Shown piece by piece: positions 2,017-17,313 of a stretch of 20,000 nt of DNA. The stretch is from an uncultured virus (IMG/VR IMGVR_UViG_3300018080_000169) (lineage: Duplodnaviria; Heunggongvirae; Uroviricota; Caudoviricetes): IMG/VR virus record IMGVR_UViG_3300018080_000169. One strand, given 5' to 3'. The position numbers were made by a program, and so were the translations under genes. Position 1 is the stretch's first letter; each line of letters begins with the position of its first letter. Under the pieces are notes generated by a model. It was not told where the DNA came from. It worked only from the letters and a program-made list of their open reading frames with translations, and did not search any database.

Positions 2017-2084
2017 GATTTTTGTTTTTGTTTATATAACGAATTTAATTTTTAAAGTAATGAAATTTATGTCAATAATGTAAA

Positions 2085-2213
2085 TTATTTTAATTTCTCC
2101 ACCAACGATAATATTGCGTTAACAGTTTTTTCATTTTCAAATAACTCTTTATCTACTTCTATTACATAATCAATATTAAATGTCTTTTTTTTCTTCCCTG
2201 TCTTCAGATTCAT
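2085..2213 (-). CDS. Small hypothetical protein (42 aa)
   Basis: Hand-translated MNLKTGKKKKTFNIDYVIEVDKELFENEKTVNAILSLVEKLK; fills the gap before repeat 2032. Confidence 0.45.
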   Translation of the reverse strand: MNLKTGKKKKTFNIDYVIEVDKELFENEKTVNAILSLVEKLK

Positions 2214-2229
2214 GTCCAATATTAATAAG

Positions 2230-2601
2230 TTATGCACCATGTTTTACCATGCACACATAAACACTATACTTTGACCATGAACAACAAAAAACTGTCCATC
2301 CCGAAAATTCAGGAAATTCAATTTCTGTTAAATCTTCTGTAGTTTTATTCTTCCTGATATTTGTTGTGTTTTTATTTGCTTCCAATACGATACAAGGTAT
2401 ATCATTTTTATTACTACCAGTAGCCGAAATTTTACCCCATTTATTTTTTGTGTCAATACAAAAAGCTATTACATTATCTGATTTTTGATAAGTAATACAA
2501 TTGTTTACAGAAATAGCACCTTGATAAGTAACACGGTGCATAACAACAGGTATATTTAATACCTGTGTTTCAGTGTTATTCAAGTTTTCTACTTTTTTCA
2601 T
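2230..2601 (-). CDS. Hypothetical protein carrying an internal inverted-repeat-bounded segment
   Basis: 123-aa ORF; 15-bp inverted repeats at 2229-2243 and 2530-2544. Confidence 0.75.
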   Translation of the reverse strand: MKKVENLNNTETQVLNIPVVMHRVTYQGAISVNNCITYQKSDNVIAFCIDTKNKWGKISATGSNKNDIPCIVLEANKNTTNIRKNKTTEDLTEIEFPEFSGWTVFCCSWSKYSVYVCMVKHGA

Positions 2602-2747
2602 CTTTATTTGTATTTTGATTGTTTATACTATTTAATCAGGCACTAAACATATCTGTTGGATTGTGTTTGTAAGTTTTATGATTTCAATTTTTTTCATTGT
2701 ATCTATATAATGAATAAAAATTATGAAATAATGAATTAATATGTAAC

Positions 2748-2951
2748 TTATAGCTCATCAAGCACATTAATAATTTCCTGTGAATAATCATCAATTAATT
2801 CATCAGTCATTAATTCATACCTACTATAAGGTAATTCTTTTTCAAATTTTTCAACTGCATTTTTAAATTTTTTTACATCATCAGTTGAGAAAGTTCTACT
2901 CATTGTATCAGATGAATGTTTGTCTATTGCTGTAATTGTTAGTAAATCCAT
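2748..2951 (-). CDS. Hypothetical protein
   Basis: 67 aa, between repeats 2964 and 2703. Confidence 0.8.
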   Translation of the reverse strand: MDLLTITAIDKHSSDTMSRTFSTDDVKKFKNAVEKFEKELPYSRYELMTDELIDDYSQEIINVLDEL

Positions 2952-2999
2952 AGCTTTTTTTATTTATATACCGAATTAAAATTTTAAAGTAATAAAAAT

Positions 3000-3025
3000 C
3001 CCCCCACTCAAATTAAGGGGGAGAG
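3000..3025 (-). terminator. CCCCCACTTAATTTAAGCGGGGG-family hairpin
   Basis: ccccccactcaaattaagggggagag between a stop codon and the next repeat. Confidence 0.6.
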
Positions 3026-3030
3026 TTCTT

Positions 3031-3237
3031 TTAATCTTCGTCTGGCAGTTCAGCAATTTCTTTTTCGCCTTCTTCGTGTTCTATTGCCCTGTCATTCCAG
3101 GTAATTATTTCATATTTTTTGCCTTCATATTCAAAAACTTCTGCATCGCCTGCATTTGAGTTTGTTTGACTTTCATCAATAGGATAATCATATAAAAATT
3201 CTCCATTTTCTAAAACGTCTTGAATGTTTGGTTTCAT
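3031..3237 (-). CDS. Acidic hypothetical protein (68 aa)
   Basis: Start moved to the ATG at 3237 (MKPNIQ...), just downstream of repeat 3251. Confidence 0.8.
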   Translation of the reverse strand: MKPNIQDVLENGEFLYDYPIDESQTNSNAGDAEVFEYEGKKYEIITWNDRAIEHEEGEKEIAELPDED

Positions 3238-3286
3238 AGTGTTTTTTTGTTTATATAACGAATAAAAATTTTGAAGTAATGAATTA

Positions 3287-5038: not shown

Positions 5039-5061
5039 AATGTTTTTATTTATATAACGAA

Positions 5062-5199
5062 TTATTCTTTTAAAGTAATGAGTTTATATAAGTTTAATTT
5101 TTTGCATTTGGTACAACGCCAACCCTCTTTTCCTAAAAACCTTACACTTAAAAGTGCTTCCGCTTTACAACACGGACTTATGTTTCGTTTTTTATCCAT
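5062..5199 (-). CDS. Zn-ribbon micro-protein (45 aa), paralog of 9817-9957
   Basis: MDKKRNISPCCKAEALLSVRFLGKEGWRCTKCKKLNLYKLITLKE; start just downstream of repeat 5204. Confidence 0.75.
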   Translation of the reverse strand: MDKKRNISPCCKAEALLSVRFLGKEGWRCTKCKKLNLYKLITLKE

Positions 5200-6881: not shown

Positions 6882-7085
6882 TTATATATTTTCAAACGGG
6901 TCCCAAGAAAATATTTGATAATCTAACTGAAGTCTTTTCCTTACTTTCTTCTTTTTCTTACGTGGGTAATTTTTAGACCTTTGCCATTCTTCACGAATTT
7001 CTTTTAACTTTTCTTCATTGTTGCCCCTCATTGTGCTTTCAAACATCAATGCCATTCCATATAACATACCTAACATTTTGCTCAT
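6882..7085 (-). CDS. Basic hypothetical protein
   Basis: 67 aa; ATGA overlap with the upstream gene. Confidence 0.7.
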   Translation of the reverse strand: MSKMLGMLYGMALMFESTMRGNNEEKLKEIREEWQRSKNYPRKKKKKVRKRLQLDYQIFSWDPFENI

Positions 7086-7273
7086 GCTTTTTCCTCCAAC
7101 GCCTTTTTAATTTGGTGATAAATTTGAAATTGCATATCATATTGAATTTGAGCATAATTTTCTTCACTCCCAGAAAATCCAACTTCTTTTAAAATCTCCT
7201 TTGTCTTTCTTAAAGATATATCCCTTAATTTTTTAAGAAGTTTATCATCATATTCAGATATTTTTTGTCCCAT
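7082..7273 (-). CDS. Hypothetical protein
   Basis: 63 aa; repeat 7284 upstream. Confidence 0.75.
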   Translation of the reverse strand: MGQKISEYDDKLLKKLRDISLRKTKEILKEVGFSGSEENYAQIQYDMQFQIYHQIKKALEEKA

Positions 7274-7320
7274 TTGCTTTTATTTATATAACGAATTAAA
7301 AGGGAGAAGTAATGAAAAAT

Positions 7321-7347
7321 CCCCCACTTAATTTAAGCGGGGGAGAG
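7321..7347 (-). terminator. CCCCCACTTAATTTAAGCGGGGG-family hairpin
   Basis: Hairpin followed by ATTTTT on the minus strand, between a stop codon and repeat 7284. Confidence 0.7.
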
Positions 7348-7350
7348 ATT

Positions 7351-7647
7351 TTATTCTAGCTCCTCAACAATTTGCTTAATATCTATAATAAAACTTTCAA
7401 AATCTTCTAAACTTTCTCTTATTTTAAAGTTTTCCCTGTATTCTTTATTTAAACGGTGAATTTCAATTTCTTCATCAACATCAAAATTATCTACATAAAA
7501 CTGTAGTTGTTCTTTAACTGGTTTATTTTTATTAATAGTAATAATCATATCTACACCGCCGTCTGTCCATTTTTCAAGCTCTATTATATCATCTGAAAAG
7601 TGAACGCCAAAATGTTTGTCTAATATTTGTTTATTTTTTTCTGTCAT
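7351..7647 (-). CDS. Hypothetical protein
   Basis: 98 aa with ELEKWTDGGVDM; repeat 7663 upstream. Confidence 0.8.
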   Translation of the reverse strand: MTEKNKQILDKHFGVHFSDDIIELEKWTDGGVDMIITINKNKPVKEQLQFYVDNFDVDEEIEIHRLNKEYRENFKIRESLEDFESFIIDIKQIVEELE

Positions 7648-7703
7648 AATTAACTCCTTTTTTTATATAACGAATTAAAAAATTGAAGTAATGAAAAATA
7701 AAA

Positions 7704-7735
7704 ACCCCCCCCCACTTAATTTAAGCGGGGGAGAG
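7704..7735 (-). terminator. CCCCCACTTAATTTAAGCGGGGG-family hairpin
   Basis: Same family, with an extended C-run. Confidence 0.7.
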
Positions 7736-7740
7736 TTTTT

Positions 7741-8079
7741 TTAGACGTATTCGCCATTTTTTACTTTATCCATAACTTGCTTCAGGGTATAGTCGCCAGG
7801 GTCAAAATACATATCTCTTTCAATTCCAAGTCCAAAAGGGAGTTTTAAACTTTCAAGCTCATCAAGCGAAACAGTGCCACATTCGGCAAATGTAGGGTCC
7901 CCCAAATTTGCAAAGCACATAAATATCCTATCTTCCTCATTGTATTCATAAAGGTACCAAGTAGAATTTCCAACGGGTGTAAAATATTTTGCAATTACCT
8001 TTATTTCTTCTGCTGTCATTTCAGAAGTATCGCCCTGCTTTTTAAAAGCATCCAGAATTTTTTTTGTAAGTAGTTTCAT
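7741..8079 (-). CDS. DUF2958 family protein
   Basis: KYFTPVGNSTWYLYE ... ECGTVSLDELESLKLPFGLGIERDMYF matches the DUF2958 pattern as recalled. Confidence 0.8.
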   Translation of the reverse strand: MKLLTKKILDAFKKQGDTSEMTAEEIKVIAKYFTPVGNSTWYLYEYNEEDRIFMCFANLGDPTFAECGTVSLDELESLKLPFGLGIERDMYFDPGDYTLKQVMDKVKNGEYV

Positions 8080-8095
8080 AGTCGTTTGTTTTTGT

Positions 8096-8614
8096 TTATA
8101 TAACGAAATTAAATTTTAAAGTAATGAATGAATATTCAGCTAAAATTTCTTTTTCAATTTCTTTTATTATTGCTGTTCTCTGTGCTTCTTTTCTTTCTTC
8201 GTATATTTCTTCAGCGTGTCTATAAAAAAGAAAGTTTATATCTTCTTCAAACTCTTTTATAATTTTGTTATATTTAAGCTCTTTAAATATTAGTGTAAAT
8301 CTTTTGCGTGTTCTTCGCCCCTCTAATATTTCTCCGTCCCAAATTATAACTTTAATTTCAAAATCATTTTTGTTAAAAGTTAGTGATACATCTAAATTAT
8401 GTGAATATGTTGTCCAAGAATCAATTTTTTTCAATTTCTTCTTCATTTCTTCTTTTGTGTCAGGATAAACAAAAAAATTTTTTGCCTCATATTCCTGAAA
8501 GTCTAAATTGTGCTTTTTACAAAAATAAAAAAATTCAGCACCATGTCTAAAATTTCCTGTTCGTATATAACCCAAAATTTTTGCCTTTTTTGAAAGTGTT
8601 TTTATTGTTGTCAT
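8096..8614 (-). CDS. Hypothetical protein whose 3' end reads through the next repeat
   Basis: 172 aa; the C-terminal SFITLKFNFVI is encoded by repeat 8096. Confidence 0.75.
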   Translation of the reverse strand: MTTIKTLSKKAKILGYIRTGNFRHGAEFFYFCKKHNLDFQEYEAKNFFVYPDTKEEMKKKLKKIDSWTTYSHNLDVSLTFNKNDFEIKVIIWDGEILEGRRTRKRFTLIFKELKYNKIIKEFEEDINFLFYRHAEEIYEERKEAQRTAIIKEIEKEILAEYSFITLKFNFVI

Positions 8615-8657
8615 TTGTTTTTATTTATATAACGAATTAAAAGGGAGAAGTAATGAA

Positions 8658-8861
8658 TTAAAAGTAAAATTCATCAATTTTTATATCAAATCCTTGTAAA
8701 CCAAAAATAAGTTCTACAAAATTATTATATGTATTTTCTCCAATATATCCTTCAGTTACAATTTTTCCGTCTCGTATTTCAATGTGTCCAAGCACCTGTC
8801 CTTTTTTTCTAATTGACATCAAATGTTGGTCTATTGTTAAATCTAAATTTTTATAGTCCAT
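8658..8861 (-). CDS. Hypothetical protein
   Basis: 67 aa, between repeats 8878 and 8625. Confidence 0.8.
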   Translation of the reverse strand: MDYKNLDLTIDQHLMSIRKKGQVLGHIEIRDGKIVTEGYIGENTYNNFVELIFGLQGFDIKIDEFYF

Positions 8862-9790: not shown

Positions 9791-9816
9791 ATTGTTTATT
9801 TTATTTATATAACGAA

Positions 9817-9957
9817 TTATTTTTTAAAAGTAATGATTTTATATATATTTAATTTTTTACATTTAGCACAACGCCTCGCTTCTTTACCTAAATACCTGGC
9901 ACTCAAAACCTCTTCAGCTTCGCAACATGGACTTAATTTTTTATTTTCTTTGTTCAT
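9817..9957 (-). CDS. Zn-ribbon micro-protein (46 aa), paralog of 5062-5199
   Basis: Hand-translated MNKENKKLSPCCEAEEVLSARYLGKEARRCAKCKKLNIYKIITFKK. Confidence 0.8.
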   Translation of the reverse strand: MNKENKKLSPCCEAEEVLSARYLGKEARRCAKCKKLNIYKIITFKK

Positions 9958-11575: not shown

Positions 11576-11630
11576 ATTGTTTAATTTTTATTTATATAAC
11601 GAATAAAAATTTTGAAGTAATGAAAAAATA

Positions 11631-11657
11631 GCCCCCACTTAATTTAAGCGGGGGGAG
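11631..11657 (-). terminator. CCCCCACTTAATTTAAGCGGGGG-family hairpin
   Basis: Same family, between a stop codon and repeat 11592. Confidence 0.7.
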
Positions 11658-11665
11658 AATTTTAT

Positions 11666-13209: not shown

Positions 13210-13235
13210 TCCCCCACTTAAATTAAGCAGGGAGA
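13210..13235 (-). terminator. CCCCCACTTAA-family hairpin
   Basis: tcccccacttaaattaagcagggaga. Confidence 0.6.
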
Positions 13236-13577: not shown

Positions 13578-13665
13578 TTTTGTTTGTTTTTAGTTTAACA
13601 TTTATTTATATAACGAATACATTTTTTAAAGTAATGGAAATTTAGTTTAATGAATAATAAAAAAA

Positions 13666-13692
13666 TCCCCCACTTAATTTAAGCAGGGAGAG
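13666..13692 (-). terminator. CCCCCACTTAA-family hairpin
   Basis: tcccccacttaatttaagcagggagag, followed by a T-run on the minus strand. Confidence 0.6.
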
Positions 13693-13696
13693 ATTT

Positions 13697-13891: not shown

Positions 13892-13991
13892 TTTTTGTTT
13901 GTTTTTAGTTTGACAATTTGTTTTTCTTATATAACGAAATAAGATATTGAAGTAATGAAAAAACTAAATTTAAGAGGGGGAGAATTTTATT

Positions 13992-14936: not shown

Positions 14937-15848
14937 TTATACTGCTTGTTCTTTTTCTATTTCTTTATGTATTTTTACTGAAGCTGTTTCCTCATCTTCC
15001 AACTTTCCTAAAATATAATCAACTGCTTTTTGTGCCTGTGTACTTGCTTTGAAAATTAATTTACTATCATTTTGTAATGCTCTTATCCAGCTTTGTAAGT
15101 ATGCAACACTATTTTTTTCAGTATCTTCATTATTAATTCCGCCTATTGCAGATAAAAAACTTGCTCCAATTTCAGCGATTAACTCTTCAAAACTATAATC
15201 ATGGTTTTCAAAAAATGTACCTGACATGACCGTAGCCCTGTTTAATCTGTCCGTGTGTCCCGTACTATGTACTAATTCATGAGCCAATGTACTATAATAT
15301 TTTTCAGTGCTGTCAAAAGCTTTTTTAACAGGCAATTTAATATAATCTAATGTAGGATTGTAATAAGCCCTGTCGCCCCCCTCTTTTTGCACTGGTTTAT
15401 TTGGCATATTATTAAAAATTTCCTCAAGTGTTTCAACTGTACCAATATTTTCGTTACCTTCAATTTCCTTAAATTCTACTCCCTCAATTTGTTCAGCATT
15501 GAAAATATTGTAATATCTTAATAAAGGGATGCGTTTCGTTTCATTTTCTCCAGTAACTTTATTTTCTCTCTCTATATTTAAAATCTTCCAATATACCACG
15601 GTTGTTGCTTTTTCGCCCTTTATAACTTTACCCCCAAGCTTATTAGCTTGTTTCATAGTAAGCCAAAAAGGACTTTTAAAATCTGCAAATGAAGTTATAA
15701 AAGCATTAATTCCCCTGTAACCCTTTTTTGTTACATAATTCATAGGTACACCAATAGAGGACCAAGGACGTTTCCATGAAAATTTGCCCTCTTGCATACG
15801 TTTGATGATTTGGTCTGTTACTTTTTTATAAACATCTGAATTTTTCAT
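14937..15848 (-). CDS. ardC: ArdC-family anti-restriction protein (ssDNA-binding N-domain plus zincin-like metallopeptidase domain)
   Basis: 303 aa with WKRPW, YRGIN, WLTMKQANKLGGKVIKGEK, HELVHSTGH (HExxH), RLNR and YSFEELIAEIGA. Confidence 0.92.
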   Translation of the reverse strand: MKNSDVYKKVTDQIIKRMQEGKFSWKRPWSSIGVPMNYVTKKGYRGINAFITSFADFKSPFWLTMKQANKLGGKVIKGEKATTVVYWKILNIERENKVTGENETKRIPLLRYYNIFNAEQIEGVEFKEIEGNENIGTVETLEEIFNNMPNKPVQKEGGDRAYYNPTLDYIKLPVKKAFDSTEKYYSTLAHELVHSTGHTDRLNRATVMSGTFFENHDYSFEELIAEIGASFLSAIGGINNEDTEKNSVAYLQSWIRALQNDSKLIFKASTQAQKAVDYILGKLEDEETASVKIHKEIEKEQAV

Positions 15849-16203: not shown

Positions 16204-16231
16204 TCCCCCCACTTAATTTAAGAGGGGGGAT
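16204..16231 (-). terminator. CCCCCACTTAA-family hairpin
   Basis: tccccccacttaatttaagaggggggat, followed by a T-run on the minus strand. Confidence 0.7.
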
Positions 16232-16780: not shown

Positions 16781-16936
16781 TTTGTTTGTTTTTTTAGTTA
16801 AACAATTTGTTATTTGAATATATAACGAAACGAAAATTTAAAGTAATGAAATTTAAAAATTTATATCTTAAATTTTTACGTAAAAATTTTATAAAAGTTT
16901 CAGCATAACGAAAAAATTTTTTAAAACAATAAAAAA

Positions 16937-16968
16937 TTATTACTTTAAAAATCTATTTCGTTATATTA
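16937..16968 (+). promoter_or_regulatory. Inverted (plus-strand) copy of the bipartite repeat
   Basis: TTATTACTTTAAAAATCTATTTCGTTATATTA has the same two boxes and spacing as the minus-strand copies and is divergent from the copy at 16818. Confidence 0.8.
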
Positions 16969-17313
16969 ATAAAATTATGAAAAAGCTATGAGGGGAGAGA
17001 ATTTTAAGGGGTCTAAATAAGCCCCTTAAAAGCCCCATTAGAGTAGTGTTTCCAGAGGTTAGGGGGTCTAATTAGGGGGTCTAAATAGCTTCGTATCAAT
17101 AATAAGCCCCTAAATTAAGCACGTCCAAATAGCCATCCAAGTCCGCTCACAAAATTTTTGCCAATTTTTTGAAATAGTTTTCAACCATCGATTTTCCTTA
17201 ATCCCCCTCTTAAATTTGCTTTTTTCCTGTAGGGATTTTGACTTCCAAATAAAAGTGTTTTAAAAAAATTTTTCCAGGAAATTTTTTGGAAAATTTTTCC
17301 CCCACTTAAACAC

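Follow-up and report, generated by a model that had tools for sequence, protein, structure and literature searches.

A probable integron-like cassette stranded in a phage gene array, with relatives in Bacteroidota and their phages

The locus and its surroundings

The window (the whole stretch of DNA analysed, 20,000 nucleotides) looks like part of a phage genome; most of its genes lie on the minus strand and are headed by a promoter-like repeat. This repeat, ATTACTT-N11-TTCGTTATAT on the minus strand, occurs in about 39 copies between positions 113 and 16980 and heads almost all small genes. Near 16930–16975, an inverted copy faces the plus-strand genes; the repeats look like a phage early-promoter array. 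A G/C-rich, terminator-like palindrome, CCCCCACTT...AAG.GGGG, is located downstream of some genes (about 2998–3025, 7320–7350, 7705–7735, 11630–11660, 13210–13235, 13665–13695, 13960–13985 and 16205–16230). The window also contains an ArdC-like anti-restriction gene (14937–15848, minus strand; ArdcN and MPTase-PolyVal domains, phrog_7245) and a 149-nt direct repeat (5044–5192 and 9799–9947, 81% identity), which takes in the promoter repeat as well as the 3′ end of a cysteine-rich frame and may represent a module duplication.

A minus-strand ORF at 2230–2601 encodes a protein of 123 aa. The inverted repeats at 2229–2243 and 2530–2544, reported in the first-pass annotation as the ends of an integron-cassette-like segment inside a gene, are present as described: 14 of their 15 positions match, and the segment, read on the coding minus strand, opens with GTTATGC and closes with GCATAAC, in which TAA is the stop codon of this ORF. 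The cassette body (2229–2544, minus strand) runs from the GTT at 2544 to the AAC holding the stop codon at 2229. Its ends make up a 15-bp outer stem, the 5′ arm (2530–2544, minus strand) corresponding to the R″ side of an attC site read on the opposite strand, and the 3′ arm (2229–2243, minus strand) pairing with it only in a circular cassette. The first 19 codons of the ORF form a hairpin-encoded leader, which is read in frame through the GTT into the body. The upstream attC-like hairpin, whose parts are all given on the minus strand, comprises a quasi-palindromic right inner arm (2547–2565) encoding QVLNIP, a loop (2566–2636) with an A-rich run, the ATG (2601) and the first leader codons, which was aligned with 15 relatives, and a decayed left inner arm (2637–2655); at 2656–2663, where relatives carry the outer core (AAC-G and a spacer), nothing recognisable is left in the window. 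The element extends from 2229 to about 2655–2663 and not merely to 2566, its 5′ end being blurred by the loss of the core.

The 21-codon stub ORF noted earlier (2632–2697, minus strand) is present, and its last seven codons and stop coincide, in frame, with the left arm of the hairpin. The boxes of a degenerate promoter-like repeat copy follow at 2705–2732 (minus strand); this copy had been called the most degenerate of all, and its score is indeed the lowest (15/17), but it is tied for that place among the 39 credible copies, a 40th match (14/17) looking like chance. It alone is changed at otherwise invariant bases in both boxes. On the other side, an open frame of 47 codons (2085–2228, minus strand) begins directly after the cassette AAC. 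The 3′ junction was considered as a copy of the attI-like motif described below and rejected, as it ranks 100th of 378 AAC sites under the attI-like matrix. The segment is foreign to the surrounding promoter modules, as the first-pass annotation had held, and an insertion of the cassette into an older gene is plausible; it is a guess that the start of the stub is the 5′ end, and the 2085–2228 frame the 3′ remainder, of an interrupted resident gene. An in-frame AAC lies in the stub at 2667–2665, a few bases further out than expected. Searches with the 47-codon frame found no homologue beyond itself and one weak match, the upstream neighbour gene had no relative in viral contigs, and neither an empty allele nor an uninterrupted homologue was found via the flanking frames.

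Taken alone, the inverted repeats of the window are only modestly above chance: there are 14 distinct 15-mer pairs (at most one mismatch, within 1 kb), against 8.0 on average in 60 shuffles, 8% of which contain a pair with six or more G+C. They are real as cassette ends because relatives could be compared. The relative L001 carries the same gene (92% identical protein) behind a complete hairpin; the bodies differ at 14 of 315 bases (95.6% identity), and beyond the AAC the two sequences are unrelated. Lake contigs of the same lineage as L001 stop at 2228, and we infer that 2229 is the insertion boundary of the window cassette. A contig from the probable source run, which is not independent of the window, matches 2039–3279 with zero differences, so a simple assembly join is unlikely. 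In principle, inverted repeats inside a gene would also suit an invertible segment (a shufflon-like switch), and the shuffles leave some room for chance; both explanations are very improbable, given that every cassette has its own distinct repeat pair and that the body never changes its orientation to the leader, either in L001 and L273 or in any of the 15 homologous proteins. No strand-changing joint occurs among the 15 contig joints listed, out of 23; the joints all fall on the promoter repeat and are uninformative, and contigs drop rare forms.

The hairpin, the leader and the unit that moves

The perfect 8-bp hairpin at 2546–2566, regarded earlier as an adjacent feature of its own, exists, but not as a separate element. 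Such hairpins are common (17 overlapping ones in the window, 1–16 in 10 shuffles), shuffled sequences are equally rich, and the perfect 8-bp pairing is found in none of 24 relatives of the right arm. It is a chance by-product of the right arm 2547–2565, created by one substitution.

The larger hairpin has decayed in the window. Its inner arms form 15 of 19 Watson–Crick pairs (read by hand), compared to 17–18 in 16 of 22 relatives, and its fold is weaker than that of L001 (−13.0 and −19.2 kcal/mol, respectively), the long stem not being the minimum-energy fold of the window copy. The hairpin of L001 consists of AAC, 5 nt, a 19-nt arm, a loop with the ATG, the complementary arm, 2 nt and GTT; the window retains both arms and the loop, without the outer AAC core, and since this core is unrecognisable the excision site has been lost. 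Half-sites resembling that of the window were found in L026 and in L007/L025. A profile search, with a model that included the window copy, gave 2539–2656 as the sole strong match in the 20-kb window, which has one decayed site, the only one of its subtype; no recombinase was found among the 10 of its 71 ORFs scanned (the large ones). The differences between the body and that of L001 comprise nine synonymous and five non-synonymous codon changes, which suggests that the coding sequence of the window copy is still under selection. Searches with the 123-aa ORF revealed no Pfam family, and the Atlas gave no function; the Atlas model of the cargo protein is of low confidence (pLDDT 0.38; TM-scores by query below 0.5), and our best guess, itself of low confidence, is a small accessory protein like those filling such arrays.

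Judging from the alignments, the leader is the product of the loop and right arm of an attC-like hairpin of about 116 nt upstream of the gene. The exact 46-letter leader pattern found nothing in viral contigs; a pattern for the last codons of the leader led to 22 viral loci. The first-pass annotation had named as contrary evidence a leader always joined to the same C-terminal domain, with repeats that do not covary. What was found is a leader heading 21 bodies (distinguished by their first 25 aa), 19 of them unrelated, two pairs being variants; L002/L275, with a match of 12 residues only, was left out. The GTT...AAC ends covary: in 16 of 20 scorable bodies, the end pairs with the head of the same body at no fewer than seven of nine bases beyond the core, compared to 7% of swapped partners, with the cassette end picked by position (first YAAC at or after the stop) and complementarity unused. 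One further body has no such AAC, two of the low scores belong to one body in which an earlier AAC was picked, and one body has compensated ends (L026 versus L027). The description of the segment as integron-cassette-like is upheld by these results. A recurring short leader on unrelated phage proteins can mislead annotation: phrog_33482 matches residues 1–25 only, and two Cellulophaga phage proteins match the first 23–25 residues only, i.e., the leader alone. In L014/L015, a leader-bearing cassette is present twice, 938 bp apart and with differing flanks, the copies being identical from the upstream AAC to the 3′ AAC except for single changes.

A separate cassette fused to the generic leader of an older module, as had been proposed, is not what the homologues indicate; the leader is part of the hairpin that lies upstream in the cassette itself. 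The same leader type is kept by 14 of the 15 homologues of the window body, the 15th having been called from an internal Met. Two of the 15 homologous proteins have eroded ends. In P0124 and P0125, homologues of the cargo protein, the leader is kept and the residues encoded by the terminal stems are lost; they are likely to be further domesticated copies.

Among 35 pairs of cassettes with a shared body, which are not independent and 25 of which were fetched via the arm pattern (favouring shared upstream sites, but leaving the downstream-flank result unbiased), none retains sequence past the 3′ AAC and 24 retain the upstream hairpin; the moving unit is therefore the hairpin together with the gene downstream of it, bounded at the AAC. 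The ten unbiased pairs share the hairpin in three cases, are borderline in two and have different hairpins in five; in the last five, the ORF starts inside the body, and in four of them the terminal stems differ too, which indicates separate cassette formation. These five pairs of homologous bodies behind different hairpins (L178 and L217 share a 5′ end), the occurrence of one leader type on many bodies and the loss of strand specificity by canonical attC sites devoid of extrahelical bases, reported in the available part of PMC2727003, could also be explained if the GTT...AAC body alone were mobile and were swapped in frame, at G|TT, behind interchangeable leader hairpins. Such a two-part fusion is unlikely: it predicts bodies carrying a hairpin downstream, seen in none of the 35 pairs, no leader swap was found among read-through cassettes, and neither the constancy of the leader on homologues of the window body nor the differing terminal stems agree with it. 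Over longer times, genes can, as these pairs suggest, be repackaged with another hairpin.

With the hairpin and the gene travelling together and the boundary lying at the AAC, the gene would be antisense to a normal cassette. Canonical attC sites are cut in the R′ box of the bottom strand, where AAC is usually followed by G (PMC2727003, in the sections available); on the gene strand of the phage sites, G follows AAC in 149 of 153. We infer that the gene strand corresponds to the attC bottom strand and that the phage genes are antisense to the cassette.

Site architecture, recombinase and bacterial arrays

The ends of the 361 cassettes collected pair to about position 15: pairing at positions 13, 14 and 15, which played no part in cassette selection, was found in 289, 273 and 219 cases, compared to 91 at position 16. 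Position 11 on the gene strand is a G·T in 260 of the 361 phage cassettes and an A·C in three, and the single mismatch of the window repeats is this family-wide G·T. The sites are 40–190 nt long and read, on the gene strand, AAC-G, about 5 nt, arm, loop, arm, about 2 nt and GTT; in 40 loci, site calls with an asymmetry of 2–4 nt numbered 95, versus four in reversed-sequence controls. Of 63 loci with more than one site, 59 have all sites in the same polarity, and in 113 of 131 cases the longer frame lies on the strand with the longer 5′ spacer (a>b). Among the 126 sites at least 100 nt long, 52 have an in-frame ATG in the hairpin that is read through the GTT; among 75 shorter ones, a single site does.

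The first-pass annotation had pointed to a tyrosine recombinase elsewhere in the genome as a possible partner; one does accompany such arrays, in relatives. In L013, an AAC closes the array, and an AT-rich motif lies between it and the gene of a 268-aa recombinase with SAM_4 and Phage_integrase domains. This protein scores below the cut-offs for integron integrase, XerC, XerD and XerA (TIGR02249: 156 bits, in two pieces, versus a cut-off of 265). In the region of the IntI-specific I2 insertion it has 45 residues where VchIntIA (2A3V) has 93, so that, in a comparison made on this one representative, the array-linked recombinase is devoid of the insertion that IntI possesses; its best 120 homologues are nearly all of 263–271 aa. 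The recombinase alignment matched 492 viral stretches. A set of 80 viral loci was selected by the recombinase alone. Upstream of it, these hold 153 sites in gene polarity and eight in reversed polarity, and downstream sites number only two and four in the two polarity classes; 45 of the 55 recombinase loci with at least 1.5 kb of upstream sequence carry a site. The attI-like motif at the array end, AAC-TAYTATATAT, is located just upstream of the gene of the approximately 268-aa recombinase in 73 of 78 viral loci, a partly circular figure, since the motif search was seeded by a consensus from the same loci. By its co-location, this recombinase is the putative enzyme of the sites. The 22-kb fragment holding L001 has no such recombinase gene.

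The arrays of Cellulophaga phages lie near a different integrase, of the SAM_5 type. It was considered as the cassette enzyme and set aside, because another gene lies between it and the array end, and the SAM_4 type sits directly behind the attI-like motif. The arrays of Cellulophaga phages phi19:3 (L003) and phi13:2 (L004) have shared cassettes in a different order, and both end in AAC-AATGTTATATAAC behind different last cassettes.

Homologues of the recombinase were found in 42 of the 151 Bacteroidota genomes searched. Clear sites of mirror polarity lie downstream of the recombinase in about 12 of 32 Bacteroidota loci, and the bacterial genes are followed by a mirror attI-like motif (both read by eye); two bacterial loci have the phage-type layout. 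In 10 hand-picked bacterial arrays, 28 of 32 cassettes are sense and four antisense, all four in L264, and 24 of 29 cassettes have the mirror A·C at position 11, three with doubtful ends having been left out. The antisense cassettes of L264 (genome G017) are located at about 6937–8732, on the recombinase strand of the bacterial array, and one of them encodes a 182-aa protein whose start may resemble that of phage exonuclease-like proteins; this antisense run suggests an exchange of cassettes from phage to host. The host of the virus in the window is presumably a member of Bacteroidota, judging only from where the leader and the sites occur.

The mirror A·C bears on a further explanation, in which the paired ends and hairpins are RNA structures controlling transcript stability or translation of portable modules, which spread by homologous recombination between similar hairpins. 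In phage cassettes, the G·T at position 11 would be a G·U on the mRNA strand, and the ATG lies within the loop, both as expected of such structures; in bacterial cassettes, the A·C falls on the coding strand, so the wobble tracks the DNA site and not the transcript. The breakpoints, moreover, are precise at AAC, the sites are strictly polarised relative to the tyrosine recombinase and the attI-like motif, and no Rfam family matches the sites in the window, L001, L003 and L004, all of which makes the RNA explanation quite improbable.

The proposed cassette and its relation to integrons

The stretch from 2229 to about 2660 is probably a single cassette, left on its own in a phage gene array, of an integron-like system that occurs in Bacteroidota and in their phages. 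In the mechanism proposed, the gene strand would act as the attC bottom strand, folding as single-stranded DNA and being cut at AA|C; the strand-specific G·T and the AAC breakpoints provide indirect support for recombination of folded single-stranded sites. The cassette would leave as a circle, its stem closed by the 15-bp ends, and would be inserted at the attI-like motif or, for the window copy, at a secondary AAC site. The hairpin would stand in front of the gene because phage genes are antisense to the cassette, and long hairpins would supply a start codon and a leader of about 20 residues. The window cassette would have entered behind the promoter-like repeat, probably inside a small resident gene, and would afterwards have lost its outer core and some stem pairing while its coding sequence stayed under selection, becoming a fixed gene.

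By analogy, the window copy may be an off-target insertion like those of SALINs at attG sites, followed by loss of the outer core. As far as the accessible portion of the account goes (bioRxiv 10.1101/2022.09.11.507474), SALINs are likewise lone cassettes away from an array, inserted at sites that need only a GWT-type core. The window junction, G|TT on the plus strand, is not attI-like, as is the case for attG insertions; its TT comes from the cassette itself, so the target core would be readable only with an empty allele. SALINs have been described, in the same portion, for IntI1–3, canonical attC sites and bacterial chromosomes, whereas the window copy lies in a phage gene array. The copy itself is a relic; its main value is to illustrate how a cassette can be inserted off target and become domesticated.

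The likeness to integrons extends to tandem single-gene cassettes, complementary GTT/AAC ends and hairpin sites, as given in the available sections of PMC2727003, PMC4889954 and PMC4792948, and also to the conserved G after the cut AAC and to a primary site beside a simple tyrosine recombinase, which was found in relatives and not at the window junction. In phages, the recombinase gene points away from the cassettes, the arrangement given in the same sections for typical integrons; in the bacterial arrays it is co-oriented with them, like that of the inverted-integrase group. As for the RYYYAAC/GTTRRRY core, GTT and AAC are fixed and the bases following them covary, without being strictly RRRY. 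Unlike in integrons, the cassette ends pair over 15 bp, and the genes of the phage form run antisense, their start often lying within the hairpin; the order of a gene followed by its own attC is reversed in the phage form, where the site precedes the gene, and is present in the bacterial arrays, with their mostly sense cassettes. Canonical attC sites have single extrahelical bases and a near-symmetric spacer; the window subtype instead has two arms of 19 nt each, which are free of bulges in 21 of 22 copies, and a 5×2 internal loop, and the family as a whole shows the 2–4 nt asymmetry. The system thus appears to work like an integron yet to fall outside this class by two features, the I2 insertion of IntI and the extrahelical-base layout of attC.

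Integrons are defined, in the part of PMC4792948 available, by an I2 domain reading the extrahelical bases of attC, and the origin of this pair is posed there as a chicken-and-egg problem; if an I2-less recombinase with hairpin cassettes is common, that question could be put to the test. We consider it possible, with somewhat less than even confidence, that Bacteroidota and their phages have a second class of integron, in which an I2-less recombinase would act on folded single-stranded sites and a 3-nt asymmetric loop, in place of extrahelical bases, would pick the strand; phages would use the cassettes in reverse, the hairpin giving captured DNA a start codon and a leader, host and phage arrays would swap cassettes, and the window copy would be a domesticated end point. 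If this is true, IntI-based screens may overlook a large cassette pool, spread over the bacterial genomes and viral stretches counted above. The arrays of Cellulophaga phages phi19:3 and phi13:2 offer a cultured system for testing.

The best family and structure matches of the recombinase are to XerC, XerD and XerA (NF040815, 197 bits; PDB codes 5HXY and 4A8E). It differs from them in falling below all curated cut-offs and in being tied to cassette arrays, and the XerC/XerD/XerA account names, in the sections accessible, no cassette-linked subgroup of Bacteroidota (PMC8138268). Reviews list Bacteroidota among the phyla with integrons, without detail in the passages available (PMC8618304, PMC9668308). 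The literature search, which covered few subscription papers, revealed no description of the system beyond one such site (Qi et al. 2023), so prior publication is possible.

That site, P12002L_attC1, belongs to the CALIN of Polaribacter phage P12002L and has the family layout, AAC-6 nt-arm...arm-3 nt-GTT; the strand given as its bottom strand is the one that encodes the neighbouring genes, in line with the antisense interpretation (PMC9892861). In the available text of that paper, P12002L_attC1 is treated as an ordinary attC in an integrase-less cluster and is the sole one of six sites without a verified IntI1 junction, and a dedicated recombinase, an attI-like motif or a hairpin-encoded leader are not described there. 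In the P12002L locus (L143), at about 29230–29250, the attC2 site given in the same text begins at the 3′ AAC of the last cassette of the array, the position where relatives carry the attI-like motif.
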